A stretch of DNA of 64,000 bases from Patescibacteria group bacterium (GCA_024277435.1 JAJRVJ010000028.1:14114-78113); one strand, 5' to 3'. Positions 5,081-51,520 are shown, counted from the stretch's first letter. The notes: generated by a model from the letters alone, not told the origin. Numbers and translations: made by a program.

Positions 5081-5353
5081 ATGATTACCAAGGAGCAAAA
5101 GGATAAAATTATCCAAAAATACGCAACAAAAAAGGGCGATACTGGTTCACCGCAGGTACAGATCGCTATTTTAACGTATGAGATTAATGATTTATCAGCT
5201 CATCTTAAAACACATAAGAAGGATTTTTCTTCTCGACGTGGTCTTCTTAAAAAAGTAGGTCAACGTCGTCGTTTAATGCGATATTTAAAAAAAGAGAACC
5301 TAGCTGAATATGAAGCGCTAATTAAGCCTCTTAAAGTAAAGGATAGTGTCTAA
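5081..5353 (+). CDS. rpsO: 30S ribosomal protein S15
   Basis: [69 protein letters not shown] is canonical S15. The start is at the internal ATG at 5081 rather than the ORF-track start. Confidence 0.9.
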
Positions 5354-13572: not shown

Positions 13573-14949
13573 CTATCGAATGAAATTCAGTGGCTCCTGC
13601 TTCACTCCATTCACCGTTACTTCAAAATGGACATGTGGACCCGTAGACCGTCCGGTACTTCCTACAAATCCTATAACATCGCCACGTCCAACAGATTGGC
13701 CGCTAGATATATTAAAGGCAGACATATGTGCATAGCGTGTTGTCATTCCGTTAGGATGCACAACGTCAATATACAAACCATAGCCTCCACCCCAGCCATT
13801 ACTATTACGAATGTACGCAGTACCGCTTTCAGCTGCGTAGATTGGCGTTCCCGACGGACAAGCAATATCGCGGGCTAAGCCATGGCCATAATATGTTTTC
13901 GCTGCATTACGGCAGCCCACTGGCCAGTTAAGATTACCGCCAGTTACACTACCTGGTACGTTTCGTTGTTGAAATACATTTCCGCTTCCAGTATTTGAAG
14001 CAGTATATGTAGGTTTTGGAGGTGGTGGTGGAACATACGGTTCACCATCTACAATAATAATTTTAGAACCAACGGGAATAATATCTTCACCTTCAAGTGC
14101 GGCCAATGTAGCATCATAATCACCTGTATGTTTATCAACAAGTTTTTTTAATGTATCACCATCTTTTACTTCAACAACATAACCAGAGTATGGTGGAATG
14201 GATAGTGTATCCCCAGGCTTAATAAAGCTCTTCGATGTAAGGCTATTAGCCCACAGAATACTATTTACAGAAAGGCCGAATCTATCAGCGATAGAGCCAA
14301 TGCTATCACCTTCACGTACTTTATAATTAGTAAAGTCTGCCCGAACACCAACCTCGGTAGATAGTACAGTATTACTTGTTAGCGCTGAACCTGCTTCTAG
14401 TAGCTGTAGTTCTTCTTCAATAGTACGTAAACGTTGTGCTTGTGGATCAACTCGAGGAATATTCGCAATTAATACACCGTCAGTTTCAAAGTAAAAATCT
14501 GTACTACCACTACGTTGTGGTAAGCCTTTTTCTACAATTTCTTCACCAAGTTCTCCTTCACTTGCAATTTGGTATAATCCAGATTGTTTTCCAAAGTCTT
14601 CATCATATACAGTCTTTGCTTGAATTACATTATTCGATGCAACAAATACCGTAATTGTTACAACCATTACATGAATAAGATATTTATTACCAAAGATAAA
14701 GAAAAACTTATTATGAAAGAATTTCGATTTTTTCAATCGTGTAAATACAGAAATATAGCGCCGATATATAAATAGCGCTATTGGTTTTAAAATAAATTTA
14801 AGAGTTAACCAAAAGGGGTCGATTAACAACGCTAATAGCCACCATAAGGCACGAACGATTACTCTGGCCAAACGCAACATGCGTACGGCTAGCGAAACAG
14901 CAAATTGTTTTATTCGTAGAGACACGCCGGAAAGAATACCACTTTGCAT
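13573..14949 (-). CDS. LysM-domain M23 family metallopeptidase (peptidoglycan endopeptidase), N-terminally membrane-anchored
   Basis: C-terminal M23 motifs (HxxxD-like GHGLARDIACPSGTPIYAAESG, GPHVHFEV) and two LysM-like segments (YKVREGDSIGSIADRFG, YVVEVKDGDTLKKLV). The true start may be an internal Met. Confidence 0.8.
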   Translation of the reverse strand: MQSGILSGVSLRIKQFAVSLAVRMLRLARVIVRALWWLLALLIDPFWLTLKFILKPIALFIYRRYISVFTRLKKSKFFHNKFFFIFGNKYLIHVMVVTITVFVASNNVIQAKTVYDEDFGKQSGLYQIASEGELGEEIVEKGLPQRSGSTDFYFETDGVLIANIPRVDPQAQRLRTIEEELQLLEAGSALTSNTVLSTEVGVRADFTNYKVREGDSIGSIADRFGLSVNSILWANSLTSKSFIKPGDTLSIPPYSGYVVEVKDGDTLKKLVDKHTGDYDATLAALEGEDIIPVGSKIIIVDGEPYVPPPPPKPTYTASNTGSGNVFQQRNVPGSVTGGNLNWPVGCRNAAKTYYGHGLARDIACPSGTPIYAAESGTAYIRNSNGWGGGYGLYIDVVHPNGMTTRYAHMSAFNISSGQSVGRGDVIGFVGSTGRSTGPHVHFEVTVNGVKQEPLNFIR

Positions 14950-32020: not shown

Positions 32021-34825
32021 ATGATGAAACGTATTCTTGCACAATTCAAGCCAAATTTTCTAGCGGTAATTGCTATTGGGTGTATTGTTGCATTCACTAC
32101 AGTAATGCCTACTTTAGGGGAGGCTGGTCTTCTAGAATTTTCTAAAGATACAGTATTATATCTTGTGTCAGCTATTGCGTACTTCTTCTTGATATACATC
32201 ATGGGTAAATTAGCTACCCTTGGAACAAAGTTAGTGGTTACCACAGCGTATTTTAAGAATTTTACAGATTTACCAGCTGTTATTGAAGGTTGGCAAGTGG
32301 TGCGAGATCTTTCCAATATGTTCTTTATAGTAATTCTTCTAGCTATAGCGTTTGGTACGTTATTTAGAATTGAAGCCTATTCTTGGAAAAAGCTCTTACC
32401 AAAAATGGTATTAGCCGCTGTACTCATTAATTACTCTCGTGCAATTGTAGGTGTAGTTGTGGATGCGTCTCAAATTATCATGCTTACATTTGCTGAGGCA
32501 GTAGCAGCAGCAGCCGACAAAGGAATTGCTAAAGCCTTTAACTTAGGTGATTTATTATCATTTGGTACCAGCGTGTTGCCGGATGGGTCAGCATCAAATA
32601 ACCCGGCGGTAGCTTCTCCCGAGCAGCGTTTATTAGGTATTGTAGCTGCCGGATTAATGTTATCGGTATTAGTAGCTGTACAATTTACCTACGCCGCTGT
32701 ATTAGCTGGCCGTTTAGCGATGATTTGGTTTTTAACAGTGCTGTCTCCGTTGGCATTCGTTATGATGGTATTACCATCTACCGAGAAGTATTATAAACAG
32801 TGGATGGAAATGTTAGGGCGGTATGTAACGGTAGGTCCAATGATATTATTTTATCTCTGGTTATCCATGTTCATTGGCTCCAAGGCTGGAGAAAATTTAG
32901 CAACACAAGCTACAAGTAAAAACCTTGGTGAATTTGTAGATCTTAGCAATGGAGGGTCTGCCGCTGATGCTGTACGTCCAGATATTGTGGTGTCATTTCT
33001 TATTTCCACCATGATGTTATTAGCTGGTTTGAAAATGGCAAATGATAACGCATCCGAAATGGGTACTATTACTAGTAAGGCATCTTCGGTTGGCCAGTTT
33101 GTGGCTAAAGCTCCGCTAAAGTATGGTGCCAAACCAGTAGCAGGGTATGCCGCAGATAAGGTATACGAGGGTACTGGTTTAGATATGAACTTGGTGCGGG
33201 TGGCTAACCGTTGGAAGGAAGGCTTAGATGAGTCACGTAAGAAACGTGAACTACGTGGCCGTACTAAGGCTGGTGAGGCGTATCGAAATGGTAGCTTGTT
33301 ACATGGTGCGTTGGGAGCTGGTGATGAAGTTGTAGAAAAAGGCTTAACTGTAGATCAATTTCGTGGTGGTATTCAAGGGAATTTGGGAATTACAGCTGCT
33401 TTAAATGCAATTAGTGGAGATGCAAAGATTGGAGATAGAATCTCTATGAGTAAGCAGGGGCGTTATAATAGAGCCAGAGAGCGTGAGCAAAATCTACGGG
33501 ACGCTCATATAGCAGCTAGTGGAAAATTAGCATCTGATAAAGCGGATTTGGAAAAGAAGCATATGACGGTGCGTGATTTTGAGGCTGAAAAAGCTCGTCG
33601 TGAAAATGGAGTAACGCGGGCGGATGATCAGGCTGCAGCGTTTGCTGCTGGTGGAGGATCCATTAAATTAAATATGGAAAAGGCGGATGATAGAGCGTTA
33701 CTTGAAGCGCGCAAGAGTCACTTAGAATTATTACCAACCAGTCCAGCTATTCAGGCTGAGTTAGGGCGCCTTGATAAGGCAATGGGTACCTCAGGAGAGT
33801 TTACGCTTACCGATGCAGATGTGCAGTTAAGCGGAGCTGATGGAGCATTAGATTTATTGAAGAAGGAAAGAGAAAGTCATCGTGATCGTTGGAATGCAGA
33901 TAGAGGTACTATCACAGACGGTGATCGTATACACACTGGCTCTGATCTGGAATCATTTATTAGCGGTAAGCTATCTGGCCAGCAAGATGATGTTAATAAA
34001 TTAAAATCATCACTAGATGCCGCTACTAATGCCCGTCGCGATCTGGCGCCAGCCCTAACCATGAATACTGAATTGCAGCAACGTTCCGTTATTGGTGAGG
34101 CTAAGAAAAAGATTGTTACTAACGATTCCTCAGAATTATCCTCCAACTTTTTAAATGCCATGCTGCAAGGCAGCTCTCGCGGCCCGGAGGCTTTAGCGCT
34201 CCTAGAGCGATTAGCAGAAACTGGTAACTATAATGATGCACTTGGTGCTATGCGAGATTTTTACTCTTCCCAGGGAGATGACGCTAAGGCTAGTACTTTT
34301 TCCTACGGGTATCAAGGTATTCAAGCTTTATATAAAGAATTACAAGCTCGCACTGGCATGAATGATCAAGCTATTTTGAGTTCTATCCATTATGCTGGGC
34401 AGAAAGCTAAGGATTCTAACCACACCCCACTAACCGAAATTACTGAAGTGGTTGATGGAAGAATTCAGATGCGTCCACAGGAATTGGCAGAAGCTATTGC
34501 TATTGGTGAGGAGAATAAGAAAGATGCTATGTCTGTATCTAAATCAACTCGCCTACGGATACTTGATGGTGATTTTCATAAAGGTGAGATGGGGTATTTA
34601 GATAATATGGCAGCCAACATTATGGATCAAACAGATACCCGTGGGCGCATTCGTATGACAAGAAATCTTCTTGAGGAGCTAATAAAAGGCGATACAAAAA
34701 CCCTCATTGATGGCATGACGCGCTGGCAGCATTTTGCAAAAATGACCATTGATAAACATGGCAAAGAGGGGCGTGCAAAAATGAACGAGTTATTAGATCG
34801 TATGAATTATAGTGAACGAATTTAA
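32021..34825 (+). CDS. VirB6/TrbL-like polytopic membrane protein with a long coiled-coil C-terminal domain (T4SS inner-membrane component candidate)
   Basis: Six to seven transmembrane helices in the first about 330 aa, then a hydrophilic coiled-coil region of about 550 aa. Its position before PrgI-like and VirB4 genes mirrors Gram-positive T4SS order (PrgH-PrgI-PrgJ). Confidence 0.45.
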   Translation: MMKRILAQFKPNFLAVIAIGCIVAFTTVMPTLGEAGLLEFSKDTVLYLVSAIAYFFLIYIMGKLATLGTKLVVTTAYFKNFTDLPAVIEGWQVVRDLSNMFFIVILLAIAFGTLFRIEAYSWKKLLPKMVLAAVLINYSRAIVGVVVDASQIIMLTFAEAVAAAADKGIAKAFNLGDLLSFGTSVLPDGSASNNPAVASPEQRLLGIVAAGLMLSVLVAVQFTYAAVLAGRLAMIWFLTVLSPLAFVMMVLPSTEKYYKQWMEMLGRYVTVGPMILFYLWLSMFIGSKAGENLATQATSKNLGEFVDLSNGGSAADAVRPDIVVSFLISTMMLLAGLKMANDNASEMGTITSKASSVGQFVAKAPLKYGAKPVAGYAADKVYEGTGLDMNLVRVANRWKEGLDESRKKRELRGRTKAGEAYRNGSLLHGALGAGDEVVEKGLTVDQFRGGIQGNLGITAALNAISGDAKIGDRISMSKQGRYNRAREREQNLRDAHIAASGKLASDKADLEKKHMTVRDFEAEKARRENGVTRADDQAAAFAAGGGSIKLNMEKADDRALLEARKSHLELLPTSPAIQAELGRLDKAMGTSGEFTLTDADVQLSGADGALDLLKKERESHRDRWNADRGTITDGDRIHTGSDLESFISGKLSGQQDDVNKLKSSLDAATNARRDLAPALTMNTELQQRSVIGEAKKKIVTNDSSELSSNFLNAMLQGSSRGPEALALLERLAETGNYNDALGAMRDFYSSQGDDAKASTFSYGYQGIQALYKELQARTGMNDQAILSSIHYAGQKAKDSNHTPLTEITEVVDGRIQMRPQELAEAIAIGEENKKDAMSVSKSTRLRILDGDFHKGEMGYLDNMAANIMDQTDTRGRIRMTRNLLEELIKGDTKTLIDGMTRWQHFAKMTIDKHGKEGRAKMNELLDRMNYSERI

Positions 34826-34833
34826 TAGTATAT

Positions 34834-36666
34834 ATGGTGGAGTTAACAACAATAATTAAAGCAGAATTCGACTTATCAGACAGTAAGCAGTTTGATGAGC
34901 ATATTGGGTTTCTTAAGGAAAATGTAAGCTGGGAGCGAGCGTATGAAGCGTTGCGTGTAATTCCTATTTATGAACAATGGCTAGAAAAGCACCCTTCTTT
35001 TATTACTGGGCATCCCGAAAAAACTGAAATTATTCGTACATTACTTGTAGATAATCGTTGGATTGCCTTGCGTATGATAAGCCATGATGAGGTGTTGGAA
35101 TTATACAAGCAACACATTCTTAATGTGTTCACCATAGAAGATCGCTATGATGAAATGGATGGCTATAGTGATCTACCAAAAATGATCTTACACGAGTATC
35201 TTCGAGCTCACTTGTTAACAATCCGTATACTCGATGACCGTGATGAATTTAAACACGCTATTATTAACGCACTTACTCGTAATCAAGAACCTATTACATC
35301 GGCTCCATATTTTGCTGATATTAAAGAAACTACACCTACATTAGCCAATTGGTTTGCTGAATATATAGAGTTCATGGTGCCAGATGTTAGATACTCACAG
35401 TTTCAGCAATCAAAATTTTTCAAAACAAATGAAAACATATTGCGCCTTTCTAATAAAGAATTACATCGTCTCCGGTTGTTATTTGACCTCTACGAACGTT
35501 TACGAATTTCTTCTTGGCGCCCTACTGGTATGGAAGAAAGTTTATTCTATGATGGAGAGCAAGGAGTTGGTGTGGTACAATATGAAGAGATCATTCCTTA
35601 TGCAAAGGAAGATCAAGAACGAATTAAAAAAGCTATGCAACATATTCAACAACAACAAGCTAAAAAAGATGCGGCTAACCCTCCTGCAGCTCGTCCACCT
35701 GTAGATCAGGTGCGGGCGCGTCCTACGGTGCATCCAGATATTGAAGGGTTAGATATGGATTCTACAGAAGGTCCGGATCATTTTAGTAAGCAAGATGATG
35801 AAGAAATATTCCGTCATGAAGAAAAAAGTAATATTCTTACAAAAGTAGATCCACAATACGAAAATCGGGCTCATGCACTAAAGGATCATCTGCAAGTTTC
35901 ATTTCAAACTCCCGAGGTAGAAAAGAAGTTTACCGCATTACTAGTGTCTGTATTGCGTGGCTTACGTGATGTTATGGAGTTACGCAGTTATCTAGAAGAG
36001 TTGAAATATAGTAAAAAGCAAATTGAACATATTGTAGACGGTGTAAAAGCAGAGATCAAGGGTGATATTGTTCCAGCTAAGCAAAGGGAATCCGCTACAG
36101 CGGAACGTAAAACAGAACGTAGTAGGCCAACATTCAGTCAATTACAACAACAGGTAAAAACTGTACAGAAGCGTTATAGTGCAAGCCAGGATGATGTAGA
36201 TGATGCAGCGGTAGAATCAACAACAGTTAAACCACAACCAGTTGCAGCAGTGAATGAACGTAAACATTTATTACCTAAGTTGCGCCGGCCACGTCGTCAG
36301 AAAAAGCAATTAATTGACGATGTAAAGATCCAAGAATCTATGGTAATGAGCCCAATTGATGAATTGCGGGCAATGGATTTAATTGAATATCGTCGTTTAT
36401 CACCAAATCCAGCTGAGGCAGCTATGAAGTTGCGAGATAAAATATTTTTATTAGGAGATGATTCAGTTGCGAAGCAAGCAGAGGGCGTTCAGGCATTTAA
36501 AACATCATCACTCAATAAGCAATTTCTTGATATCGGCAACCGATCAATGAGTGAGGGCCGTAGTGTAACTGATGTTATTGTAGAAATGCAAAAAAGCGGA
36601 ATTCCTGTATTGAGTGTGGAAGAATTTAATGCAGTAGCCGACCTTAATAAGCAATTGCGCTTTTAA
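34834..36666 (+). CDS. Hypothetical 610-aa soluble protein within the T4SS-like cluster
   Basis: Long ORF, no recognisable motifs, with charged low-complexity central region. Confidence 0.6.
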   Translation: MVELTTIIKAEFDLSDSKQFDEHIGFLKENVSWERAYEALRVIPIYEQWLEKHPSFITGHPEKTEIIRTLLVDNRWIALRMISHDEVLELYKQHILNVFTIEDRYDEMDGYSDLPKMILHEYLRAHLLTIRILDDRDEFKHAIINALTRNQEPITSAPYFADIKETTPTLANWFAEYIEFMVPDVRYSQFQQSKFFKTNENILRLSNKELHRLRLLFDLYERLRISSWRPTGMEESLFYDGEQGVGVVQYEEIIPYAKEDQERIKKAMQHIQQQQAKKDAANPPAARPPVDQVRARPTVHPDIEGLDMDSTEGPDHFSKQDDEEIFRHEEKSNILTKVDPQYENRAHALKDHLQVSFQTPEVEKKFTALLVSVLRGLRDVMELRSYLEELKYSKKQIEHIVDGVKAEIKGDIVPAKQRESATAERKTERSRPTFSQLQQQVKTVQKRYSASQDDVDDAAVESTTVKPQPVAAVNERKHLLPKLRRPRRQKKQLIDDVKIQESMVMSPIDELRAMDLIEYRRLSPNPAEAAMKLRDKIFLLGDDSVAKQAEGVQAFKTSSLNKQFLDIGNRSMSEGRSVTDVIVEMQKSGIPVLSVEEFNAVADLNKQLRF

Positions 36667-36677
36667 CTATATAGCAC

Positions 36678-37241
36678 ATGCAGCAATTTGTTGTACCACA
36701 ATTTATTGAGGTGGAGTCCAAGGTAATTGGTCCAATTTCGGTACGGCAATTTATCATTCTTCTTGTTACCGCGGGTATCATTTATATATGGTTTGAATTA
36801 TTTAGCTTAGTTGTTTTTGCTATACTAGGAGTGGTGACGTTAGCAATTGGTGGTGTATTTGCTTTTGCAAAGGTAAATAGTCAGTCATTCCATGTATTTC
36901 TATTGAGTTTTATTCAAACAATGAAGCGACCAAAGCTTTCTGTTTGGCGAAGAGAGCATCCGATAAAGGCAATTGAAAAGAAGGGTCGTAAAGATAAGAA
37001 GGATAAGAAGGACGATACAGAATTTACACCAAAGCCTGATGTATCGCAATCACATCTAGCAGAGCTGGCACTTATCATGGATACTGAAGGACAGTACTCT
37101 CCACAAGACATAGAGCAATTACGCAAGGAGCAGCACGCAGAGGTACCAGCTCCAGTGCAATTACCAAAGGATGACCTTGTAGATCTTAATGCTGAGCAAC
37201 CAAGCCCTCAAAATTCTAATGAACGAGAACAGCAACAATAA
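36678..37241 (+). CDS. PrgI/VirB3-like small two-transmembrane protein
   Basis: VPQFIEVESKVIGPISVRQFIILLVTAGIIYIWF followed by a second transmembrane segment matches the PrgI (PF12666)/VirB3-like pattern. It sits immediately upstream of VirB4. Confidence 0.5.
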   Translation: MQQFVVPQFIEVESKVIGPISVRQFIILLVTAGIIYIWFELFSLVVFAILGVVTLAIGGVFAFAKVNSQSFHVFLLSFIQTMKRPKLSVWRREHPIKAIEKKGRKDKKDKKDDTEFTPKPDVSQSHLAELALIMDTEGQYSPQDIEQLRKEQHAEVPAPVQLPKDDLVDLNAEQPSPQNSNEREQQQ

Positions 37242-37258: not shown

Positions 37259-38011
37259 ATGGCTAAAAAGAAAAAGCAAACAACTTCAAAAAAGGCAAAG
37301 GCCGAGGAGCTTAAAGCTCGGCAAGCTGGTGGCGGAATGAAAAAGAAGCGTAAGTCTGCACCAAATTCTCAGAGTAATATGCCTATTGCTGAGGTTAAGC
37401 AAGATACGGTTCTTTTAAAGGATGGTACGTTGCGATCTGTATTAGAAGTATCTTCAATTAACTTTGCGTTGAAGAGTGCAGATGAACAACAAGCTATTAT
37501 TCAAGGATATATTCAGTTTTTGAATTCTATTGATTTTGAACTACAAATTGTCATTCAGTCCCGCAAGCTTGATATTTCAAAATATCTTGAACAGCTCGAT
37601 AAATTAGCTAAGGAGCAAACGAACGAACTATTAAAAGTGCAAACTGTTGAATATCGTCAATATATCGATGAGTTAGTAACCTTATCGGAGATTATGGAGA
37701 AACGTTTTTTTGTAGTAGTTCCGTATTCACCATTTTCTAAAAAACGTAAAAGTTTTTTTACTCGAGCGCAAGAAGTATTATTTCCCAGCCGTGTAATTAA
37801 ATTGGCCGATAATAAATTTGCAAAATATAAGAAAGAACTCGATCGTAGAGTGGGAATTACCGCTGGGGGATTATCTTCAATTGGTTTAAAAATTGATATG
37901 TTAAGCACACAACGTTTAATTGAGTTATACTATCAAATATACAACCCAACTCGTGGAACTAGTAAAAAATTACCAGACCTAAATGATTTGCGAGTTGAGC
38001 AAGCAGGATAA
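37259..38011 (+). CDS. VirB4/TrbE/PrgJ N-terminal domain (CagE_TrbE_VirB-like)
   Basis: VLLKDGTLRSVLEVSSINFALKSADEQQAIIQGYIQFLNSIDFELQIVIQSR matches the VirB4 N-terminal motif pattern. It ends at TAA 38009-38011, in the same frame as the next ORF. Confidence 0.55.
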   Translation: MAKKKKQTTSKKAKAEELKARQAGGGMKKKRKSAPNSQSNMPIAEVKQDTVLLKDGTLRSVLEVSSINFALKSADEQQAIIQGYIQFLNSIDFELQIVIQSRKLDISKYLEQLDKLAKEQTNELLKVQTVEYRQYIDELVTLSEIMEKRFFVVVPYSPFSKKRKSFFTRAQEVLFPSRVIKLADNKFAKYKKELDRRVGITAGGLSSIGLKIDMLSTQRLIELYYQIYNPTRGTSKKLPDLNDLRVEQAG

Positions 38012-39947: not shown

Positions 39948-40568
39948 ATGAATAGAAAATTACTTATCGCTATCGTTGGATCTGCCGCAACACTACTACT
40001 TATTGTAATTGGTGTTGCCATTTGGGCTACAATGAGCAATGTTGCAACTAAAGATGGTGAACAAACTAATGAAGTGAATGCTAATCAAGGCGTTACCACT
40101 AAGAATACCAATAGTACATCTACCTCTTCTGGTAATGAGGGAGTAGATATAAATAGTTCTGGAAGTACTTTGTCTGGTAATAGTTTGGCTGAAGCGAGTA
40201 CGGATGAAGAATCGATTATTCGATTAGCAAAGAGTTTTACTCAGCGCTTTGGTTCTTTTTCTAATGATACGGATTATGAGAATATAGAGTTGTCCAGGCC
40301 ATTCATGACGGAAGACATGATAAATCGCACAAATGCACTCATCATTCCACAGGATGATAATGCTGAATTTTATAGTATTTCTACGCAATCTATTGATGTA
40401 GATATTGTTGATTTTGGAGAAGGGGCAACTGGTGCTACCATAGAAGTAGGCACTCGCCGAACGGAGCGTAAGGGCTTAGATAATCCGGTGAAATTTTCTC
40501 AAACAGCTCGGCTGGAATTAAAGAAAATTAGTAATCAATGGAAGGTTGATAAATTTACTTGGAAATAA
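39948..40568 (+). CDS. Membrane-anchored 206-aa protein (possible VirB8/PrgL-like component)
   Basis: N-terminal transmembrane segment plus about 120-aa extracytoplasmic domain of the size expected for an NTF2-like VirB8 fold. Position immediately after VirB4. No sequence motif was recognised. Confidence 0.45.
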   Translation: MNRKLLIAIVGSAATLLLIVIGVAIWATMSNVATKDGEQTNEVNANQGVTTKNTNSTSTSSGNEGVDINSSGSTLSGNSLAEASTDEESIIRLAKSFTQRFGSFSNDTDYENIELSRPFMTEDMINRTNALIIPQDDNAEFYSISTQSIDVDIVDFGEGATGATIEVGTRRTERKGLDNPVKFSQTARLELKKISNQWKVDKFTWK

Positions 40569-40585: not shown

Positions 40586-41623
40586 ATGCGGCCATCACTA
40601 AAACGCATTATATTTACAGTTACTTCAGGCCTCGGTTTTGTTGTGCCGTCGTTAGTGTTGGCAGCAAAGCGTATTGATGAGATTAGTTACACGCTAGAGC
40701 AACCATTTGGTAATGTTTCAACTGTAACAAGTTTTGGCCAGTATTTGCAGCTGGCATACGAATACACCGCTGGACTCATTGGCATTATTGCTGTAGTAGT
40801 AATTATGGCTGGCGGCTTAATGTGGGTTTCGGCTGCTGGTAACGAGCAAAAAATTAGTACTGCTAAAGAAATTATCATTGGTGCCGTTACCGCTGTTGTG
40901 ATTATTGTACTTTCGTATGCAATATTAGTATTTATTAATCCAAGATTGGTTCAGAATACATTTTCTTTAGAGCGTATTAGTTTCGTGCCATCAGATGTAG
41001 ATATTAACACACTCCCACTTTGTACATCTAAAAATTTTACTGGACAAACCTGTGTAGGTGAGGATTCTCGTGACATTGAGTGTGATTTATTGCAGTGCGG
41101 AGAGATAGGTACGCTACCAAGCGTGGGAGAGTGTCGTGGTGCTGGTAATGAATGTGGATCTGGCAGCTACAAGTGCTACCCTGATTCAGATATTCCGCGC
41201 GAAGATATGCAGTGTCAATTAGATGCCTGTGGTACTTGGATTAGTAGTTGCTATCAAAAATATATGAAAGGCGCTGCCGATGAGACTAATGAGACAGCGT
41301 ATAATAACTGCATATGTCAGTACTACGAAAGCGAAGCTATGGATTATTTTGGCGGTGTCAACGCATACGATGCAACTCGCGCAGGAATTTTTGAAGATAT
41401 GTGTAATGAAACAATAGAAAATATTGATTGGAGCACATATATTGGTAATGATAGCGCTATAGCTGCTAAGTATACAGGCGCTACTACTGGACAAGCTTCT
41501 GTATTAGGATTGAATTGTGGCTTAGGATGTAATTTTGAAAAAGGTGAAGAAACCTATAGAGATACGGATGAGTTTGGCGTAACAATAACAACAACGCTTG
41601 ACACTGTTACTTGCGTACCATAA
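40586..41623 (+). CDS. Secreted fusion protein: VirB2/TrbC-like pilin module plus Cys-rich C-terminal domain (paralog A)
   Basis: Signal peptide, then helix-loop-helix hydrophobic hairpin AGLIGIIAVVVIMAGGLMWVSAAGNEQKISTAKEIIIGAVTAVVIIVLSYAILVFINP (VirB2-like topology), then about 200 aa with about 17 Cys. Confidence 0.5.
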   Translation: MRPSLKRIIFTVTSGLGFVVPSLVLAAKRIDEISYTLEQPFGNVSTVTSFGQYLQLAYEYTAGLIGIIAVVVIMAGGLMWVSAAGNEQKISTAKEIIIGAVTAVVIIVLSYAILVFINPRLVQNTFSLERISFVPSDVDINTLPLCTSKNFTGQTCVGEDSRDIECDLLQCGEIGTLPSVGECRGAGNECGSGSYKCYPDSDIPREDMQCQLDACGTWISSCYQKYMKGAADETNETAYNNCICQYYESEAMDYFGGVNAYDATRAGIFEDMCNETIENIDWSTYIGNDSAIAAKYTGATTGQASVLGLNCGLGCNFEKGEETYRDTDEFGVTITTTLDTVTCVP

Positions 41624-41687
41624 ATATTCCTTATCAATAAAACACGAATAACTTGTTTTATCGTAGGTATTATGGTATAATTATCCC

Positions 41688-42974
41688 ATGAATTGGTTGC
41701 GTGATTTTATAGAGCGAGTAACAAATTGGGCAGAAGATCTTAATGAGGGCCAGCGCCGTATTTTTTTGGCAGGCCTACTTTTAGTTGGAGCCGCTTTTAT
41801 GGGCTTCCTTATTTACTGGGTATTTTTCCGAGATTTTTTTGGAGAAGAACAAGTAAGTATCAATGGTGAATTAGTAAATGTAAGCCAATTACCAGATATT
41901 ATTCCGGTAACTGCTGATATTGATTTAGTTAATGTAAATGAAGCAGTTGGGTTGCCAGATATCGACGTTGTAGCTAAGGGCGGTAATACACTTTCACAGG
42001 TTATCCGCTATGGTGAATCAAAAAATGTGGTATTGAGTGGCGATGGAAAAACGCTGCAATACTATGATCCTGAAACTGGGAAATTTTATCGTATTGATGA
42101 AAATGGAAATGTTATTGAATTAAGCGATAAAGTATTTCAGGGTGTAGAGGAAGCTACTTGGTCTAACGATGGAGATAAAGCCGTTATTGAGTTAGAAGAT
42201 GGCTTTAACATTGTGTATGATTTTGATATTGAAGAACAGTACACATTACACGAGGATATGGCAGATTTTGATTTTTCTCCAAACGATAATCAAATCAGTT
42301 TCAAATTTGAACCAGGTAATCCCGATGATAACTTCTTAGGTATTTCTAGCTATGATGGATCTGGAGCAGTCGCAATTGAGCATCTTGGTAATAATGGTGA
42401 TCAAGTGAATCCGCAGTGGTCTCCATCAGGGCAATCGATTGGTACATTTGAAGAATATGTTGATGGCATCAATAAATCGGTTCTACCACTTGGATTTAAG
42501 GGTGAAAATTTCAAAGATTTTATAGTTGAGGGAAGAGGCTTTGATTATGAATGGTCACCAAGTGGTAGACAAATGCTATACAGTACGTATACCCCAGCAA
42601 ATAACTATAATCCTACCATTCATATAGTAAATGCGTATGGTGATGAGATTGGCTCTGGTAACCATTCATTAAATTTAAATACATCAGTTGATAAATGCAC
42701 CTTTACCGCCAGCGGAAATTCAGTATACTGTTCTGTTCCAACTGAACAGCCAATTGGTTTAGGAATTAATCCTGATAATGCTAATGATATTCCACATGAT
42801 ATTTATAAAGTGGATATAGAATCTGGATTCATAGAAAAAATAGCTACACCAGTAGATCAACAATTAGGGAGTAGTCTTAAAGGGGCAACATCTATAATAG
42901 TAAGTAAAGATGAGAGTATTCTCTATTATACCGAGGCTGATACTGGAAATATTCGTCGAATCCTTTTAAAATAA
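41688..42974 (+). CDS. Membrane-anchored TolB-like beta-propeller (PD40-repeat) protein
   Basis: N-terminal transmembrane segment; repeated WSNDGDKAV, FSPNDNQISF, WSPSGQSIG and WSPSGRQMLY motifs typical of PD40/TolB-like blades. Confidence 0.5.
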   Translation: MNWLRDFIERVTNWAEDLNEGQRRIFLAGLLLVGAAFMGFLIYWVFFRDFFGEEQVSINGELVNVSQLPDIIPVTADIDLVNVNEAVGLPDIDVVAKGGNTLSQVIRYGESKNVVLSGDGKTLQYYDPETGKFYRIDENGNVIELSDKVFQGVEEATWSNDGDKAVIELEDGFNIVYDFDIEEQYTLHEDMADFDFSPNDNQISFKFEPGNPDDNFLGISSYDGSGAVAIEHLGNNGDQVNPQWSPSGQSIGTFEEYVDGINKSVLPLGFKGENFKDFIVEGRGFDYEWSPSGRQMLYSTYTPANNYNPTIHIVNAYGDEIGSGNHSLNLNTSVDKCTFTASGNSVYCSVPTEQPIGLGINPDNANDIPHDIYKVDIESGFIEKIATPVDQQLGSSLKGATSIIVSKDESILYYTEADTGNIRRILLK

Positions 42975-42979
42975 TTTAT

Positions 42980-43747
42980 ATGAGTAAATCAAATTCACAG
43001 TACAAATATTACGCAATTATTACCCTGGCAATCTTTGGATTACTTTTTTTGATTAGTACGTGGTTTTTTATTCGAGTTGCTATTTTAGGATCCGCTGATA
43101 CTATTCTCATTAATAATGAATCATTAACCAGTGAGGACGTAATAAAAATCCAAATGCAGAGTCCGGAATTTAAAGACCCGCTTATTACTGTTGTGCCAGA
43201 GGATCAACAGAGTATCAGCAGTAAATCTAAGGTATTTATTTCAAATATCGATCCATCACTTGGCTCAGATGAATCCAGGGCCTTTGTTATCATTTATGGT
43301 AATTTTGCAGATCCACAAGTAAGTGATTATATACTTTGGGCAACTAACATTGTTGAGGATTATGATGGCAATGTAACTGTTGTATGGAAAGATTATGTTT
43401 CACCAGATGATGAGCGGGCTACAGCTATGGCAGTGCGAGCACATTGTGCAGCTGAGCAAAATCGTTTTTGGCAATTTGCTGATGCATTGCAGAATCGTGA
43501 GTCAGATGATGATGCTACATTGCTATCACTTACTCTAGCGCTTGGTATGGATGAGTTAACGTTTAATGAGTGTTTGGATTCCGGAGGATATGAAGCGATA
43601 GTTGAGCAGAACTACTTTGCTGGGAATAATTATAGCGTATCAAATGGTCATACGCTATTTGTGAATGACCGGCAATACAATGAATTGATTTCTGAAGAAG
43701 AACTAAGAACAAGTATTGACGAAGTTCTCGTTGAATTTAGCGAATAA
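42980..43747 (+). CDS. DsbA-like thioredoxin-fold protein (Thioredoxin_4-like) with a degenerate CxxC site, membrane-anchored
   Basis: C-terminal AHCAAEQNRFWQFADAL matches the DsbA/BdbD signature A..C..EQ.KFW.FHD.LF. The position where CxxC is expected reads FADPQ. Confidence 0.45.
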   Translation: MSKSNSQYKYYAIITLAIFGLLFLISTWFFIRVAILGSADTILINNESLTSEDVIKIQMQSPEFKDPLITVVPEDQQSISSKSKVFISNIDPSLGSDESRAFVIIYGNFADPQVSDYILWATNIVEDYDGNVTVVWKDYVSPDDERATAMAVRAHCAAEQNRFWQFADALQNRESDDDATLLSLTLALGMDELTFNECLDSGGYEAIVEQNYFAGNNYSVSNGHTLFVNDRQYNELISEEELRTSIDEVLVEFSE

Positions 43748-43757
43748 TAAAAGAAGC

Positions 43758-45056
43758 ATGCGCTTAGTAAAATTATCCCTATACTGCATTATACTTGCAT
43801 CAGCGGTATTTGGATTTGCACAAAGTGTACAGGCTGAACCTGCTCCAGACTATGTGCCCGGACCAGATCAACTATATACACTAGAGCAAAAATTTGGGAA
43901 TATAAGCCAAGTTGCTGATATTGGAGAATACATTCAGTTAGTATATTCGTATGCCGTCGGTATCGTTGGAATTATAGCGGTAGTATTAATTATGGGTGGA
44001 GGTATTATGTGGGTTTCCGCTGCTGGTAATGAGCAAAAAATTAGTACTGCCAAAGAAGTTATTGTTTCTGCGGTTACAGCGGTGATAATAATGGTCCTTT
44101 CATATGGTATATTAGTATTTATTAACCCACAGCTCACTAAAGTGCAAATAAGTGTGCCAGTTATTCCGGTGCTTGATAGTTGCCCAGAAGTTCCATTACA
44201 ATCATTTCCATCTATCGATGGCCTTGAATCTAATGGTTCCCAAGCTTGCCCTGGTATGGTGGCTGAAATTACTTCGATTGTTTCTAGTATGAGAGCTACT
44301 GGTGGTTTATGTGAAGATTGTACACTGGCCATTGGTAACGCTTGGCGGTCAAGTGAATCTCAAGCTACATTGTATCAGTGTTTTACGCAAGCAGTAGAAG
44401 AAGGGTATCGTACAAGTGGAGGAATACCTATTAAAGATGGTTGCCCCAGCGGCTGTAGTGGTTGTAATAAAGCTCGCGAGGTGAGTGAAACAACTTGCGC
44501 TTCTGGCCATTTACGAGGAGCGGCAATGGACGCCTACCTTATGGTAGGTGCAACGAGTGATAAAAATACCGCGGCAGGAGTGACTGCACAAGGCCCTGAC
44601 GGAAGTGCATATATTGCAAATAGCCGATGGTATTTAAATCAAAAATATAATTTAGGCAATGGAGTAGAGAGTACCTTAAAAGATCCATTAAAGAATAATC
44701 AAGATTTATTGGCAACTATAGCAACGAGCACCGGAAAGTTCACACCGTTCACACCAACAGCATCGGGGGGTGAATGGTGGCATTTTGATTTTTCTGCAGC
44801 ACAATGTGATTCATTTGACGCTCCCTGTACTATAAATACTACTACAGGATTTGCTGATAATGGATATTGCCGTTTAACTACTCCTGGCAGTGTGACATAT
44901 ACATTAGCGAGCTGCACTGCAGGGGAGCCTACATGTCCTACAGGCACAACCGGATCTATTTATACTACCTTAGATGACACTAGTTGCGGATTATGGAATG
45001 GAACGCATTTGGAGATGGATAATGTAATTCTTCCACCTAATTGTGTATCTGATTAA
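43758..45056 (+). CDS. Secreted fusion protein: VirB2/TrbC-like pilin module plus Cys-rich C-terminal domain (paralog B)
   Basis: Signal peptide MRLVKLSLYCIILASAVFGFAQSVQA. The core VGIVGIIAVVLIMGGGIMWVSAAGNEQKISTAKEVIVSAVTAVIIMVLSYGILVFINP is near-identical to paralog A. The C-terminal Cys-rich domain is divergent. Confidence 0.6.
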   Translation: MRLVKLSLYCIILASAVFGFAQSVQAEPAPDYVPGPDQLYTLEQKFGNISQVADIGEYIQLVYSYAVGIVGIIAVVLIMGGGIMWVSAAGNEQKISTAKEVIVSAVTAVIIMVLSYGILVFINPQLTKVQISVPVIPVLDSCPEVPLQSFPSIDGLESNGSQACPGMVAEITSIVSSMRATGGLCEDCTLAIGNAWRSSESQATLYQCFTQAVEEGYRTSGGIPIKDGCPSGCSGCNKAREVSETTCASGHLRGAAMDAYLMVGATSDKNTAAGVTAQGPDGSAYIANSRWYLNQKYNLGNGVESTLKDPLKNNQDLLATIATSTGKFTPFTPTASGGEWWHFDFSAAQCDSFDAPCTINTTTGFADNGYCRLTTPGSVTYTLASCTAGEPTCPTGTTGSIYTTLDDTSCGLWNGTHLEMDNVILPPNCVSD

Positions 45057-47160: not shown

Positions 47161-48564
47161 CTACGTTAATCGTTGACGACCAAGAATTTTCTTCATACGA
47201 GAAGTTTCTGATTGTACAATATTGTACTGTTTTTTTATTTTCTTAGTACGCTCATCGGCCATTTTTTTCATTAACAATATACCAATAGTATACGTAGGGA
47301 AAAGATTAAAGCCAGGGATAAATTCGGCAATTACCCCAATGACGAGTTTACCAACAGTTCTCTTAATAAGCATGCGCTTAAAGAATGTACCCTCACCTAA
47401 CAAGATGGCTGTTAGTGCACCGCCTAAGAATAGGCTAGCCAGTGTAGTAATAATTCCAAAGTCTGCACCGCCGCCAACCATCCAGTCTATTAAATCTTTA
47501 GCGATTGCAATTGCTAAGGCTGCGGCAAATCCTTTAAACTCGCCACTTTTCATACTAGCTTTAATTTGTTGACCAACTCGATCACCAGCTTTGATTACAC
47601 CGCGTTCAGTTAACTTTCCTTTGGCAGATTTAGCTCCAGCCTCTCCGGCTACAGCGCCACCACCAGCCTGTGCTGCTTCAGCAATTTCTGACTGCTCAGC
47701 TGCCTGACTAATCCGTTGTTGTGACTGCTGTATTTGCATGCTCCGTTGTTGTCTAGAGCGCGCTTGCTGCTTCTCTTTGTTTAAGGCAGCTATTTGACCA
47801 GCTTGACCAATGCCCTCACCATCAGTATCTTGCTCTCCATCCCCATCTTCTTCAGCTAATTGTTTTTCTTGCTCTGCTTGAGAAAATCGGGCTAATTGTT
47901 GCTTGCGTTTTTCAGAGTCATCACCCGCTAAATTTACCATACCTTGCTGAGCAAGTGCTTCCTCATCAGCCGACGATGGTAAGCTCACTGCACTTTGAGG
48001 AGGCGCTATACTTTCTGGTTCACCAGGCGCTTCAGGTTCTTGCTCTGCTGTAGCGGCCTCTGCCTCTCGTTCTTCACCAGCTCCTTCACTGCCAAGTTCC
48101 TCAATCATACGGGCGGCTTCTTCGCGCTCTTCCGTAGAGACTTCCTGTATACCACCAGAAGGAGTGTAGTTATGCATATCTGCTAGTGATGCTAACGTGG
48201 CATTTTGCATCCCATTATTTAGGGCCTGCTGCATAATTTTTAGTATCTCACCAGAATGTTCTTGTAAGGCACTTTCTAGTGCCTTAGGACTTAGCCCATC
48301 TGTAGGATCCTCTAAGTTAACCGCAGCCATTATTTGCTCATTCTGCATAAGCTCAGCAGCAATTTTTGGTATCAACGCAAAAAGTTTTTGCGGAGTCATG
48401 GAATCTCCACCCTGTGCTTTAATTTTAATATCTTGTGGAACCGCTGAAAGGCGAGCGAGTCCCTCACTAATACCTTCTTTCAAAATATCCGGCTCATTAA
48501 CAACCCGGTCTCGATATGAGCCTAATTGTGGAGTAGGATTTTCAGTCATCGGTAGGTGTTTCAA
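47161..48564 (-). CDS. Hypothetical protein, acidic/Q-rich with C-terminal transmembrane helices
   Basis: Long ORF co-directional with and 5 nt downstream of recG. C-terminal hydrophobic segments. Confidence 0.55.
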   Translation of the reverse strand: MKHLPMTENPTPQLGSYRDRVVNEPDILKEGISEGLARLSAVPQDIKIKAQGGDSMTPQKLFALIPKIAAELMQNEQIMAAVNLEDPTDGLSPKALESALQEHSGEILKIMQQALNNGMQNATLASLADMHNYTPSGGIQEVSTEEREEAARMIEELGSEGAGEEREAEAATAEQEPEAPGEPESIAPPQSAVSLPSSADEEALAQQGMVNLAGDDSEKRKQQLARFSQAEQEKQLAEEDGDGEQDTDGEGIGQAGQIAALNKEKQQARSRQQRSMQIQQSQQRISQAAEQSEIAEAAQAGGGAVAGEAGAKSAKGKLTERGVIKAGDRVGQQIKASMKSGEFKGFAAALAIAIAKDLIDWMVGGGADFGIITTLASLFLGGALTAILLGEGTFFKRMLIKRTVGKLVIGVIAEFIPGFNLFPTYTIGILLMKKMADERTKKIKKQYNIVQSETSRMKKILGRQRLT

Positions 48565-48979
48565 TTTCGTATGATCCCATTAGGGTAGCAACATCAAGTA
48601 ATCGAGTATTGCGTTCCTCAATTAATTTATCAACTTCCTGTTGTTTTTGGACATCACTTAATCGCGTATCATTTTCAATGATATTCACTAATGCACAATA
48701 GAGTATTCCAAACTCTGCAACTATTTGTTTATAGTAATCATCTTTGATGGTAAGGTCGGTAGCTTGTGCCACAATTGGTAATTGCTGGAGTAGAGGAGTA
48801 AGGTTCCCCATTAATCCATGAACTCGTGGATCTGTATCGGATTCTTGCGTAACATCATTCATCCAGGCAGGGGTATCAAATGCAGCCTCAGGCTCATCAA
48901 GCTCACCTAAGCGTTTTTGGTGCTTTAATTTAGATAGCTCCAATTGCAATGAGTGCTCCTTAGGAGTAGGTACTGTCAT
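48542..48979 (-). CDS. Hypothetical 145-aa protein
   Basis: The ORF overlaps the downstream gene start, and there is a terminator-free operon-like arrangement with recG. Confidence 0.45.
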   Translation of the reverse strand: MTVPTPKEHSLQLELSKLKHQKRLGELDEPEAAFDTPAWMNDVTQESDTDPRVHGLMGNLTPLLQQLPIVAQATDLTIKDDYYKQIVAEFGILYCALVNIIENDTRLSDVQKQQEVDKLIEERNTRLLDVATLMGSYEIETPTDD

Positions 48980-49080: not shown

Positions 49081-49620
49081 TTATAGTTCAAATCCAATAA
49101 TATAGTCATAGTCAGCAACGGCCTGCCCATTAATAGCCGGTCCAGCGCATGCATGCTTTACCAATTGGTCGTTAAATTTATCGTCTTCAGTTTTATAGAA
49201 TGCTAGTAGAGGCCCAATAAAATCATCTCCAGCATCTGCATTACAACGGTCAATCGGTCGAGTAGGAGAGTAATAATAGAAGTAATTAGTACCATCATTA
49301 CTTGGATCAGCTGGTACAGGATTCATATATGGATCCAAAACTGAATCAATAGCGCTGCCAGTGCCAATTACTTCACCGATTGCAGTAATTCCATCATCAG
49401 CATTATTTGGAAATCGGCCATTTTCCGAATAAAATGCGCCTAACGCAACTGTAATGGCCTGCATATCAGATATGCGAGTTGCGTCACGGGCTTGTGTTCT
49501 GGCCGTGCTAATACGGATAATAATGATAGTTGCCAGAAGGCCAATAATGCCAATTACAAGAAGTAGCTCGATAATAGTAAAGCCTTCTTGACTATTATGC
49601 TGGTTATTTATGATATGCAT
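49081..49620 (-). CDS. Type IV pilin-like protein (prepilin-type N-terminal cleavage/methylation domain)
   Basis: GFTIIELLLVIGIIGLLATIII matches the class III signal peptide / N-methylation motif (G-F-T-x-x-E). Confidence 0.75.
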   Translation of the reverse strand: MHIINNQHNSQEGFTIIELLLVIGIIGLLATIIIIRISTARTQARDATRISDMQAITVALGAFYSENGRFPNNADDGITAIGEVIGTGSAIDSVLDPYMNPVPADPSNDGTNYFYYYSPTRPIDRCNADAGDDFIGPLLAFYKTEDDKFNDQLVKHACAGPAINGQAVADYDYIIGFEL

Positions 49621-50376: not shown

Positions 50377-50467
50377 GGAGAGGTGGCTGAGTGGTTGAAA
50401 GCGGCAGATTGCTAATCTGTTATACGGGTTTTTTCCCGTATCGAGGGTTCAAATCCCTTCCTCTCCT
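50377..50467 (+). tRNA. tRNA-Ser (anticodon GCT)
   Basis: Acceptor GGAGAGG/CCTCTCC, anticodon stem GCAGA/TCTGT with loop TTGCTAA, long variable arm TACGGG-TTTTTT-CCCGTA, T-loop GTTCAAATCC. Confidence 0.75.
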
Positions 50468-50540
50468 CCCGTGCACTATATATGACGGAACTTCTTACTT
50501 AATGAGTAGGTAAGTAGTTGTTAGGTAGCAGAATACATCC

Positions 50541-50627
50541 GGAGAGATGGCAGAGCGGTTGAATGCATTAGTCTTGAAAACTAAAGTGCCCTAACGGGTA
50601 CCGGGGGTTCAAATCCCCCTCTCTCCT
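50541..50627 (+). tRNA. tRNA-Ser (anticodon TGA)
   Basis: Acceptor GGAGAGA/TCTCTCC, anticodon stem TTAGT/ACTAA with loop CTTGAAA, long variable arm, T-arm GGGGG-TTCAAAT-CCCCC. Confidence 0.75.
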
Positions 50628-50631
50628 CATA

Positions 50632-50670: not shown

Positions 50671-51520
50671 TCATAACGGACTTTTAATGTTTTTCAGACT
50701 GGGATTTGTTACTTTAGTGTATATTTGAGTTGTTCTAATGTTCGCGTGCCCAAGCAATTCTTGTACATAGCGCACATCTGTTCCATTTTCTAATAAATGC
50801 GTTGCGAACGAGTGTCGTAGAGAATGAAAAGTTGCTGGTTTTTTGATTTCTGTTTTTGATAAGCTTTTACGAAACATTTTTTGAAGAGAAGTGGTTGTGA
50901 TTTTTCCTCCGCGGTTTGATGCAAAAACATAATCATCTGCATTTTTTCCAGCGACTATATTTCTCAAATCGTTTTGCAACTTTTCTGGTAATACACTAAT
51001 TCTATCTTTCTTACCCTTCCCCCCCTTTTATATGTACAACAAGCTCATCAATACCTAAATCTGCAACGTGTAGTGCAACCACTTCACTCACTCTTAGGCC
51101 ACAAGCATAACCAAGAGAAATCATCAGCTTATATTTTGCGTTATCAGTAGCGTTAATGATTTTTTCAATCTCTACTTTCGATAATACTATTGGTAATTTC
51201 TTATCTCTCTTTGCCAATTTCAAATTAATCTTTTGTGGATCTTTCAAGACTTCCGCATACAAAAACTTTACCGCATTAAGTGCTAGATTGATGGTTTGTG
51301 GAGATTGTTTTCGTTTGTGTTTATCAAGTAAAAACTCTTCTATAGCTTTTTGCTTGTTTATTATTTCGTTCTCCTTTGAAAATGTGATGTAATCTTTAAT
51401 GTATCCTAAATAGACTCTTTGTGTTTTAGGAGAATAGTTTCTTAAACGTAATATTCGTTCTGTTTTATCTAAAACACTCTTCATATTTTGGATTGTAACA
51501 AGAGTTTGTATAACATACAA
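50671..51520 (-). pseudogene. Tyrosine recombinase/phage-type integrase with a +1 frameshift in a G7 homopolymer (51019-51025)
   Basis: N-terminal SAM-like domain ORF (51011-51520, ends ...VHIKGGEG*) and C-terminal catalytic ORF (50671-50979, [39 protein letters not shown] with R..H..R..Y). Removing one G restores ...[23 protein letters not shown]..., the canonical integrase box. Confidence 0.8.

Follow-up and report, generated by a model that had tools for sequence, protein, structure and literature searches.

Two fusion proteins downstream of virB4

In this study, we have examined two open reading frames (ORFs), A and B, that lie within a type IV secretion system (T4SS) locus of an uncultivated and ultra-small Patescibacteria group bacterium and that share a two-helix membrane module, followed in each protein by a different Cys-rich domain. 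The window, here and below, is the whole stretch of DNA that was analyzed, 64,000 nucleotides in length (GCA_024277435.1 JAJRVJ010000028.1:14114-78113). An earlier note made from the sequence alone (the original prediction) had presented A and B as secreted paralogues in which a VirB2/TrbC-like pilin module was kept constant while an outer domain varied, and had suggested that they could be alternative pilus tip or adhesin subunits, or pilin-anchored effectors. Both ORFs are indeed present, on the + strand, with the following features:

40586..41623, + strand: ORF A, 345 amino acids (aa), with a signal peptide, a T4SS_pilin module and an orphan Cys-rich ectodomain
40685..40978, + strand: pilin module of ORF A, residues 34-131, with the YTLEQPFG motif, a first transmembrane helix (TM1), the loop SAAGNEQKISTAKE, a second transmembrane helix (TM2) and the INPRL linker
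41003..41620, + strand: ectodomain of ORF A, residues 140-345, with 12 invariant Cys and a compact domain in the AlphaFold2 (AF2) model
43758..45056, + strand: ORF B, 432 aa, with a signal peptide, a T4SS_pilin module, a predicted M15 zinc peptidase domain and, at the C-terminus, a beta domain rich in Cys
43872..44168, + strand: pilin module of ORF B, residues 39-137, from PF18895, the module profile and AF2 helices
44235..44795, + strand: predicted M15/LAS peptidase domain, residues ~160-346 of B, from conserved motifs and profile matches
codon 44346, + strand: B motif WRSSESQ, R197 (alignment, position checked)
44508 and 44529, + strand: B motif SGHLRGAAMD, H251 and D258 (alignment, positions checked)
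44772 and 44781, + strand: B motif EWWH, E339 and H342 (alignment, positions checked)
44805..45053, + strand: residues 350-432 of B, a C-terminal subdomain rich in beta structure, in which 6 Cys are conserved

The two ATG starts are at 40586 (ORF A) and 43758 (ORF B), with upstream TTG alternatives at 40559 and 43716. BLASTP alignment of the two products gave a single significant segment, residues 35-144 of ORF A against residues 40-151 of ORF B (61% identity, 77% positives, E 1e-41), and judged by these scores the similarity of the modules is far beyond chance. No second segment was significant in the same comparison (next best E 5.4), in agreement with the view that the C-terminal domains are unrelated to each other. 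The shared stretch had been put at about 60 aa; the sharing holds, but the module is longer, extending over about 100 aa from a YxLEQPFG motif ahead of TM1 to about 15 residues beyond TM2 (...INPxL......I[PS]). When all six frames of the 64-kb window were searched with a profile of the module (hmmsearch), exactly two copies were found, in ORF A (132.8 bits, E 1e-40) and in ORF B (136.4 bits, E 4.5e-42), and the next match was an M48 peptidase (E 0.006).

The succession of signal peptide, hydrophobic helix, polar loop and hydrophobic helix that had been predicted was borne out by both hydropathy and AF2. Each protein begins with a signal-peptide-like stretch (MRPSLKRIIFTVTSGLGFVVPSLVLA / AK in ORF A; ...FGFAQSVQA / EP in ORF B), and the long hydrophobic helices seen by hydropathy (54-86 and 89-123 in A; 58-91 and 95-127 in B), which are separated by the polar loop, agree with the modelled ones (50-82/87-117 in A; 55-87/92-122 in B). 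Once the signal peptide is removed, the expected topology is one with the N-terminus outside, the loop in the cytoplasm and the C-terminal domain outside. All 16 Cys of ORF A lie past residue 145, and 16 of the 17 Cys of ORF B lie past residue 141, in the parts that are predicted to be outside.

The shared module belongs to a T4SS pilin family

The Pfam family T4SS_pilin (PF18895) matches both proteins over nearly the whole model, at 23.8 bits (E 4.7e-5) for A and 21.5 bits (E 2.5e-4) for B, its gathering cut-off being 26.6 bits. In the relatives of these proteins, the family is found (E < 0.01) in 16 of 16 B-type and 18 of 20 A-type members, with a best E of about 1e-9, and one orthologue, the M15-type protein of L002 (related loci are designated by L numbers), passes the gathering score with 38.8 bits. 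When the 92-aa module by itself served as the query, no homologues were returned, which apparently reflects the limit of short queries, since a profile built from a 20-sequence alignment of the module matches more than 4200 proteins at E <= 1e-5. The best 120 of these matches are proteins of 92-154 aa; PF18895 is present in 119 of them, PF04956 (TrbC/VirB2) is present too in 10, and some are labelled "pilin" or "VirB2 component" by the source databases. The hallmark residues of the short PF18895 pilins are all kept in the module of A and B. Furthermore, NF045849 gives a weak match across the whole hairpin (24 bits for A and 20 bits for B, with a cut-off of 40 bits), which would fit a monoderm ancestry of this T4SS.

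Based on its sequence, topology and location, we regard the module as a genuine member of the VirB2-like pilin family of the Candidate Phyla Radiation (CPR), with a large C-terminal domain that is atypical: at 345 and 432 aa, with ectodomains of 200-300 aa, A and B are unlike the small, stand-alone PF18895 pilins (~110-150 aa). No stand-alone short pilin was found in the window or within about 10 kb of seven related loci, so that A and B are the sole pilin-type proteins at the locus. The original prediction had allowed that the module might prove to be a generic anchor without any match to a pilin profile; the PF18895 matches in both proteins and in their relatives speak otherwise.

ORF B carries a predicted peptidoglycan peptidase

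The C-terminal part of ORF B had been described as a Cys-rich surface domain. From its motifs and profile matches, we predict instead with high confidence that it is a zinc peptidase domain of the M15 type, acting on peptidoglycan stem peptides. Six residues (R197, Q202, H251, D258, E339 and H342) are invariant across an alignment of 16 full-length homologues that are 37-46% identical. The profile of this family matches VanX (1r44, E 4.4e-5), and in this match the zinc ligands and the catalytic Glu (H/D/E/H) are aligned; the VanX residues concerned are H116/D123/E181/H184, to which we take these roles to belong. Weaker PDB matches of the same profile were Ply500, VanXY and LdcB, and the (Y/W)RSxxxQ motif is found in Ply500 also when the two are aligned. 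Among the 16 B-type members, Pfam recognizes VanY in 12 (best 2.1e-6) and Peptidase_M15 in 6 (best 3.7e-8). AF2 models the peptidase region with a predicted local distance difference test (pLDDT) score of 85-92, and the top PDB match of this model in Foldseek was a phage L-alanoyl-D-glutamate peptidase, although a weak one (E 0.11). The subdomain formed by residues 350-432 gave no family match, and neither A nor B contains an SLT, CHAP or NlpC/P60-type domain homologous to VirB1, TrsG or CD419. A predicted peptidoglycan hydrolase domain is thus present inside the T4SS locus in the case of ORF B, and since this domain is of an enzymatic type, an adhesin or a tip variant is not the best reading for B.

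The ectodomain of ORF A is an orphan domain

In an alignment of 20 ORF A relatives, 12 Cys are invariant and R184, Y247, E275 and N310 are nearly so. AF2 models the ectodomain as a compact unit (pLDDT about 85-94) that combines a beta portion knotted by disulfides with a helical portion and ends in a beta hairpin. A HMMER scan of 1.84 billion cluster representatives returned only 14 matches, two of which (P0039 and P0040) we consider spurious, as they are long repeat proteins in which a short stretch is matched repeatedly. Most of the remaining matches are 330-360 aa long with the domain starting near residue 125-145, which places it downstream of the pilin module. No family could be assigned to this domain: there was no Pfam match at E <= 10, PDB sequence-profile searches with two alignments gave nothing at E <= 10, and the best Foldseek matches had an E of 0.74 against the PDB and of 0.11 against BFVD, the latter with a root-mean-square deviation above 19 A. 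We also considered a cryptic SLT domain and rejected it; hhalign against the SLT domain of P0020, a pilin-SLT protein described below, gave a probability of 0.4%, and the stretch IAAKYTGATTG, which resembles the SLT motif AYNxG, is not conserved in the family.

The T4SS locus and its neighbourhood

The window is chromosomal DNA of low GC content (about 40%), with genes for PNPase, guanylate kinase, LeuRS, KsgA, RecG, ClpB and tRNAs. From KsgA to RecG, the order is two giant Cys-rich proteins, g934, g610, PrgI, a TrsD/TraC-like protein, VirB4, g206, A, g428, a thioredoxin-fold protein and B. This is a monoderm-type T4SS locus as described for Patescibacteria, and an association of T4SS with recG has been reported for the class ABY1 (PMC12102498). 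The genes around A and B are:

32021..34825, + strand: g934, polytopic membrane protein, candidate extended VirB6 (hydropathy, synteny)
34834..36666, + strand: g610, conserved soluble protein upstream of PrgI (conservation, hydropathy)
36678..37241, + strand: PrgI (VirB3-like), PF12666 at E 8e-8
37259..38011, + strand: TrsD/TraC-like ORF, resembling the N-terminal region of VirB4 (PMC12102498)
38015..39913, + strand: VirB4-like ATPase, P-loop_TraG at E 4.7e-28
39948..40568, + strand: g206, bitopic membrane protein directly after VirB4, position conserved (synteny)
41688..42974, + strand: g428, bitopic, its ectodomain weakly resembling a PD40/TolB-like beta-propeller; the gene is invariably located between those of A and the thioredoxin-fold protein
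42980..43747, + strand: thioredoxin-fold (DsbA-like) membrane-anchored protein between A and B, Thioredoxin_4 at E 1e-14

ORF A starts 673 bp past the stop codon of VirB4. The 934 aa of g934 include several hydrophobic segments within the first 340 aa and a large hydrophilic C-terminus; the protein has no Pfam match and may be an extended VirB6. The function of VirB4 is split, with the 250-aa TrsD/TraC-like ORF (Lys-rich at its N-terminus) directly ahead of the 632-aa ATPase, an arrangement that has been reported for most Patescibacteria (PMC12102498). In the thioredoxin-fold protein, the position of the CxxC motif reads YGNFADPQVSDY, and the motif is missing in all eight aligned proteins (the window protein and the orthologues of L001, L002, L004, L005, L006, L008 and L009), the seven orthologues keeping only two other Cys. 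From this alignment, the neighbour of A and B appears to be a redox-dead thioredoxin fold that is conserved within the T4SS locus, and we have excluded it as the oxidase of the Cys-rich ectodomains.

Several other genes of the window are worth recording. The two giant ORFs, directly upstream of the T4SS genes (19787-27517 and 27881-32011, both +), encode, respectively, a protein of 2576 aa that has a signal peptide and contains 109 Cys and one of 1376 aa with 38 Cys, and have no Pfam match; partial homologues adjoin KsgA in L019 and lie upstream of g934 in L010. On the other side, recG is followed in all related loci by conserved proteins of 467 and 145 aa (47161-48564 and 48542-48979 in the window, both -), the former being acidic and rich in Gln in its N-terminal part and hydrophobic towards the C-terminus, and the next gene in the window (49081-49620, -) is type IV (N_methyl) pilin-like. 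Two tRNA-Ser genes stand beside a truncated tyrosine-integrase ORF of 168 aa (50377-50628, +, and 51011-51520, -), which has a SAM-like N-domain and the start of a catalytic domain and is possibly the remnant of an integrated element. Finally, a separate wall hydrolase with LysM and Peptidase_M23 domains is encoded about 23 kb upstream of VirB4 (13573-14949, -); M23/LysM-containing proteins have been counted among the VirB1-like matches in a census of CPR (PMC12102498).

Conservation of the locus and exchange of domains in relatives

The named relatives are metagenome-assembled genomes of Candidatus Kerfeldbacteria. The order g934-g610-PrgI-TrsD-VirB4-g206-A-g428-thioredoxin fold-B-RecG(-) is complete in three loci (L001, L005 and L008), and partial in three others (L004, L009 and L012), and a single genome has it divided between two loci, L010 and L006; the A/B arrangement near virB4 recurs in 7 or more divergent genomes of the Kerfeldbacteria type. 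The percentages of identity with the proteins of the window are:

VirB4: 84-93%
TrsD: 70-81%
PrgI: 60-70%
pilin module: 49-79%
g428: 48-64%
RecG: 48-57%
thioredoxin-fold protein: 32-44%
B ectodomain: 31-42%
A ectodomain: 27-35%

The single transmembrane anchors of the neighbouring genes often do not align at all across related genomes. The contrast between the module (49-79%) and the ectodomains (27-42%) suggests that the hairpin is constrained in the manner of a machine part, while the ectodomains are the fastest-evolving portion.

The fusion of a pilin module to a large domain had been put forward as unusual, but it is no one-off oddity, as it recurs in Patescibacteria with other partners. 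In the organism of L002, L015 and L016, the A-type gene is missing and a pilin-SLT gene precedes the pilin-M15 gene; the pilin-SLT protein of L002 (P0020) shows the motifs ES, GIMQ and AAYNGG. The ectodomain of ORF A is a defined orphan domain at a position where another lineage encodes a lytic transglycosylase. L017 has a pilin-SLT protein (55 bits) together with a pilin module fused to a domain without assignment. In L018 (4372-7672), three tandem pilin-module fusions follow a DsbA with CPYC, the middle one bearing Peptidase_C39_2 and the outer two bearing domains without assignment, and Ig-like fusions (Big_5, Big_7) also exist. Based on these M15, SLT, C39-like and Ig-like fusions, the module can be seen as a portable unit, placed N-terminally to various extracytoplasmic domains that include several wall hydrolases. 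Two further arrangements differ from that of the window. A 518-aa protein of Uhrbacteria (L013, 7755-9311) has Cys-rich domains flanking the pilin module on both sides, and its gene has a thioredoxin gene and uvrA as neighbours, the fetched flanks containing no T4SS gene; L014 (9425-11734), in contrast to the two fusions of the window, has a classical tandem array of at least 5 short pilin modules.

Gene conversion between the module copies

Compared as DNA, the two module copies of the window have 68-69% identity; a core of 54 nt around the loop agrees at 50 positions, and the longest run without a mismatch is 20 nt. Much longer identical runs exist between the two copies of other genomes: 180 nt in L008 (6975-7235 versus 10031-10291), 131 nt in L002 (3812-4081 versus 5261-5530) and 68 nt in L001 (6985-7254 versus 10169-10432). 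As much as 3 kb separates the genes concerned, which bear no relation to each other in their 3' parts. Such perfect nucleotide tracts in front of unrelated 3' halves point to recurrent gene conversion that is limited to the module, by which the module appears to have been homogenized in these other genomes. In addition, the loop and TM2 carry lineage-specific substitutions that are common to both paralogues of one genome, and the identity between A and B modules is 0.72-0.85 within a genome and 0.66-0.79 across genomes. We had also considered that whole modules would cluster by genome rather than by type, which was only partly true, as orthologues are often closer; it is in the local tracts of identical nucleotides that the signal is clear.

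The idea that the module is held constant by selection has to be qualified accordingly: its constancy stands, but at least part of it would come from gene conversion, and selection is not the sole cause. Shared partners probably also keep the modules alike within a genome, and since both modules must fit the same partners, conversion may be tolerated and perhaps favoured. These tracts document gene conversion homogenizing a membrane module between otherwise unrelated genes.

A model of pilin-docked hydrolases and its alternatives

Taken together, we consider it reasonably likely that A and B are components of a chromosomal, MPF_FATA-like T4SS locus of the Kerfeldbacteria/ABY1 type, in which they would serve as pilin-docked peptidoglycan hydrolases, the counterparts of VirB1 and PrgK. 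In this model, the cleavable signal peptide would be removed, leaving the VirB2-like hairpin in the membrane and the disulfide-rich ectodomain outside. The hairpin would not be a passive anchor; it would dock the enzymes at the VirB3/VirB4/VirB6 platform, or VirB4 would extract them. The M15 domain of B would cut stem peptides in a target wall that could be the cell's own or that of a host, and peptidoglycan would be opened only at the site of T4SS assembly or of contact with the host. This would be the role that VirB1, PrgK, TraG and CwlT have elsewhere, and apparently SEML1_0006 and SEML1_0007 in Southlakia.

Several of our observations weigh against this proposal. The ectodomain of ORF A is an orphan without a recognizable catalytic fold, for which the label of hydrolase is guesswork. 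Both window proteins are individually under the curated Pfam cut-offs, for PF18895 as given above and for VanY (E 0.012-0.023), so that the PF18895 and M15 assignments rest on family-level evidence. Neither protein has a direct match to PF04956 (TrbC/VirB2) at E <= 0.1, and the link to VirB2 is only transitive, through the 10 of 120 short pilins that carry both families; of the original claim of a VirB2/TrbC-like module, the pilin type is upheld by PF18895 in both proteins and their relatives, by the short pilins and by the T4SS locus, while a direct assignment to the TrbC/VirB2 family is not. Pilin fusions also occur with no VirB4 in the fetched flanks (L013, L018 and L019), from which it follows that coupling to a T4SS is not universal for the wider family. 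Finally, as the thioredoxin-fold neighbour of A and B lacks the CxxC motif, it is not available as an oxidase for the many disulfides.

The evidence can also be read in other ways. In keeping with the original prediction, A and B could be true pilins, which VirB4 would pull out of the membrane and build into a pilus or stalk of the T4SS, with ectodomains that act as adhesins or as determinants of host specificity, B adding an enzyme. The retention of all hallmark residues of the short PF18895 pilins, the position of A and B as the only pilin-type proteins at the locus, the essentiality of pilin arrays in Southlakia and the low conservation of the ectodomains (27-42%, versus 84-93% for VirB4), as expected of surfaces in contact with a host, are all consistent with this, and homogenized modules would suit co-assembly in one polymer. 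However, a folded domain of 200-300 aa on each subunit is hard to fit into the tight helical packing of VirB2/TraA, the domain of B is that of an enzyme and has no adhesin fold, and the genome beyond the 64-kb window (the contig is 188.7 kb) could encode short pilins. Moreover, a T4SS pilus has not yet been shown in any Patescibacterium (review PMC12857230), and on balance we hold this reading to be rather unlikely. A bolder variant, which we regard as unlikely and slightly more speculative still, is that the enzyme-bearing fusions are the machine's only pilins, which VirB4 would polymerize into a heteromeric filament or stalk lined with peptidoglycan-cleaving domains; it is kept alive by the lack of a stand-alone short pilin at the locus. 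If it were true, the result would be an enzymatically armed pilus boring through the wall of the host or of the cell itself, and gene conversion would keep the polymerizing cores compatible while the ectodomains diversify against hosts.

It would be simpler to suppose that an anchor was duplicated and that the hairpin merely holds two housekeeping enzymes of wall turnover, their adjacency to the T4SS being inherited gene order. In its favour, compactness and synteny are features of CPR genomes, the M15 enzymes include ordinary ones of wall maturation (LdcB and VanY, for example), and no T4SS gene is visible around the L013 fusions, which lie beside uvrA and a thioredoxin gene. We nevertheless find this improbable: the module is a significant member of a T4SS pilin family and no arbitrary hairpin, it is far more conserved than the single-pass anchors of its neighbours, the order beside VirB4 persists although RecG is only about 50% identical, and Southlakia has an essential M15-fold protein at the equivalent place. 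It is just as doubtful that A and B are pro-proteins in which the linker after TM2 (INPxL...KIP) is cleaved, so that the machine would receive a mature short pilin and the secreted enzyme or effector would be set free to attack the host wall. C-terminal trimming of propilins is known for TrbC of RP4, and the ~15-residue linker is conserved in A-, B- and SLT-type proteins and modelled at a pLDDT below 50 (A 124-131, B 126-139); yet the linker could equally be a structural strand, no protease was identified in the locus and the data hold no sign of cleavage.

Comparison with known systems

Among the known systems, the closest to the module are the PF18895 pilins of Southlakia epibionticum (SEML1_0014-0019, an essential array). 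Like A and B, they have a signal peptide/TM/loop/TM organization with a W..AGNE....AK core, and such pilins lie in a VirB4/PrgI/TrsD locus in more than one copy per locus. The T4SS locus of this organism is essential, its short PF18895 pilins included (PMC10633639). The pilins of Patescibacteria are described as stand-alone proteins of about 110-150 aa, arrayed in sets of 2-11 that are about 25% identical to one another (PMC12102498). Unlike these arrays, the A/B-type loci have exactly two copies, 61-98% identical in the module and with two genes between them, and unlike the short pilins, A and B each have a disulfide-rich ectodomain of 200-300 aa. The "Mbov_0395 family pilin-like conjugal transfer protein" of mycoplasma integrative and conjugative elements (NF045849) is likewise pilin-like and from a monoderm (MPF_FATA) system, and it is short.

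The predicted enzyme of B can be compared with VanX, VanY, LdcB, Ply500 and the T5/RB49 L-alanoyl-D-glutamate peptidase, with which it shares the YRSxxxQ, SxHxxGxAxD and ExxH motifs. It differs from them by several extra conserved disulfides, by the long stretch inserted between HxxxxxxD and ExxH, by a further beta domain at the C-terminus and by its anchoring through a pilin hairpin. The thioredoxin-fold protein of the window recalls TraF of the F plasmid, a thioredoxin fold without CxxC on which F-pilus assembly depends, and both are encoded amid genes for pili and T4SSs; unlike TraF, the window protein is DsbA/Thioredoxin_4-like and membrane-anchored.

As regards wall hydrolases, PrgK (pCF10), TraG (pIP501), CwlT (ICEBs1) and VirB1 are, like B, found within a T4SS locus near virB4 and held at the membrane, and the pairing of a glycosidase with a peptidase in the PrgK/TraG/CwlT class is matched in the sister lineage of L002 (SLT and M15). 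These proteins have a single N-terminal TM or a signal peptide and carry SLT, CHAP, NlpC/P60 or LytM domains. A and B differ in that they are anchored by a pilin hairpin, that the predicted peptidase is of the M15 type and that the activities would be split over separate pilin-fused proteins. According to work cited in PMC12102498, membrane-anchored hydrolases such as PrgK and TraG are required by monoderm T4SSs. PMC10633639 describes two Southlakia proteins encoded directly after virB4 and scored as essential by transposon sequencing (Tn-seq): SEML1_0007 has 1113 aa and a C-terminal Hedgehog/DD-peptidase (M15B-like) domain, and SEML1_0006 has 643 aa with two lysozyme-like domains and a Cys proteinase domain. 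As in the A/B locus, a protein of the predicted M15 type (with a glycosidase in Southlakia) lies just downstream of virB4 in a CPR T4SS locus. Unlike A and B, these two have no PF18895 recorded in the passages of the source that list their domains, SEML1_0007 having no Pfam entry and SEML1_0006 only PF18013 and PF01832, and the comparison is one of descriptions.

CPR T4SS loci and their VirB2-like pilins have been published (PMC10633639, PMC12102498, PMC12857230), and, in Paceibacteria, the unknowns with high expression include T4SS pilins (PMC10936435). Our literature search found no paper describing pilin-M15, pilin-SLT or pilin-C39-like fusions, the conserved A/B pair or their gene conversion; for some of the homologues, the Pfam domains do appear next to each other in database annotations. 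In the single member of Patescibacteria that has been tested, the T4SS is essential, and reviews point to the VirB2-like pilins as the odd feature of a monoderm system. Most CPR genomes with VirB2 homologues have no recognizable VirB1, from which a census concluded that pilus biogenesis may not need VirB1 (Quinonero-Coronel et al., PMC12102498). Our results suggest an alternative: in at least some lineages, wall-cutting domains (M15, SLT, C39-like) have been built onto the pilin module itself, and hydrolases of this kind would escape both searches for VirB1 homologues and counts in which a PF18895 match suffices to define a pilin.

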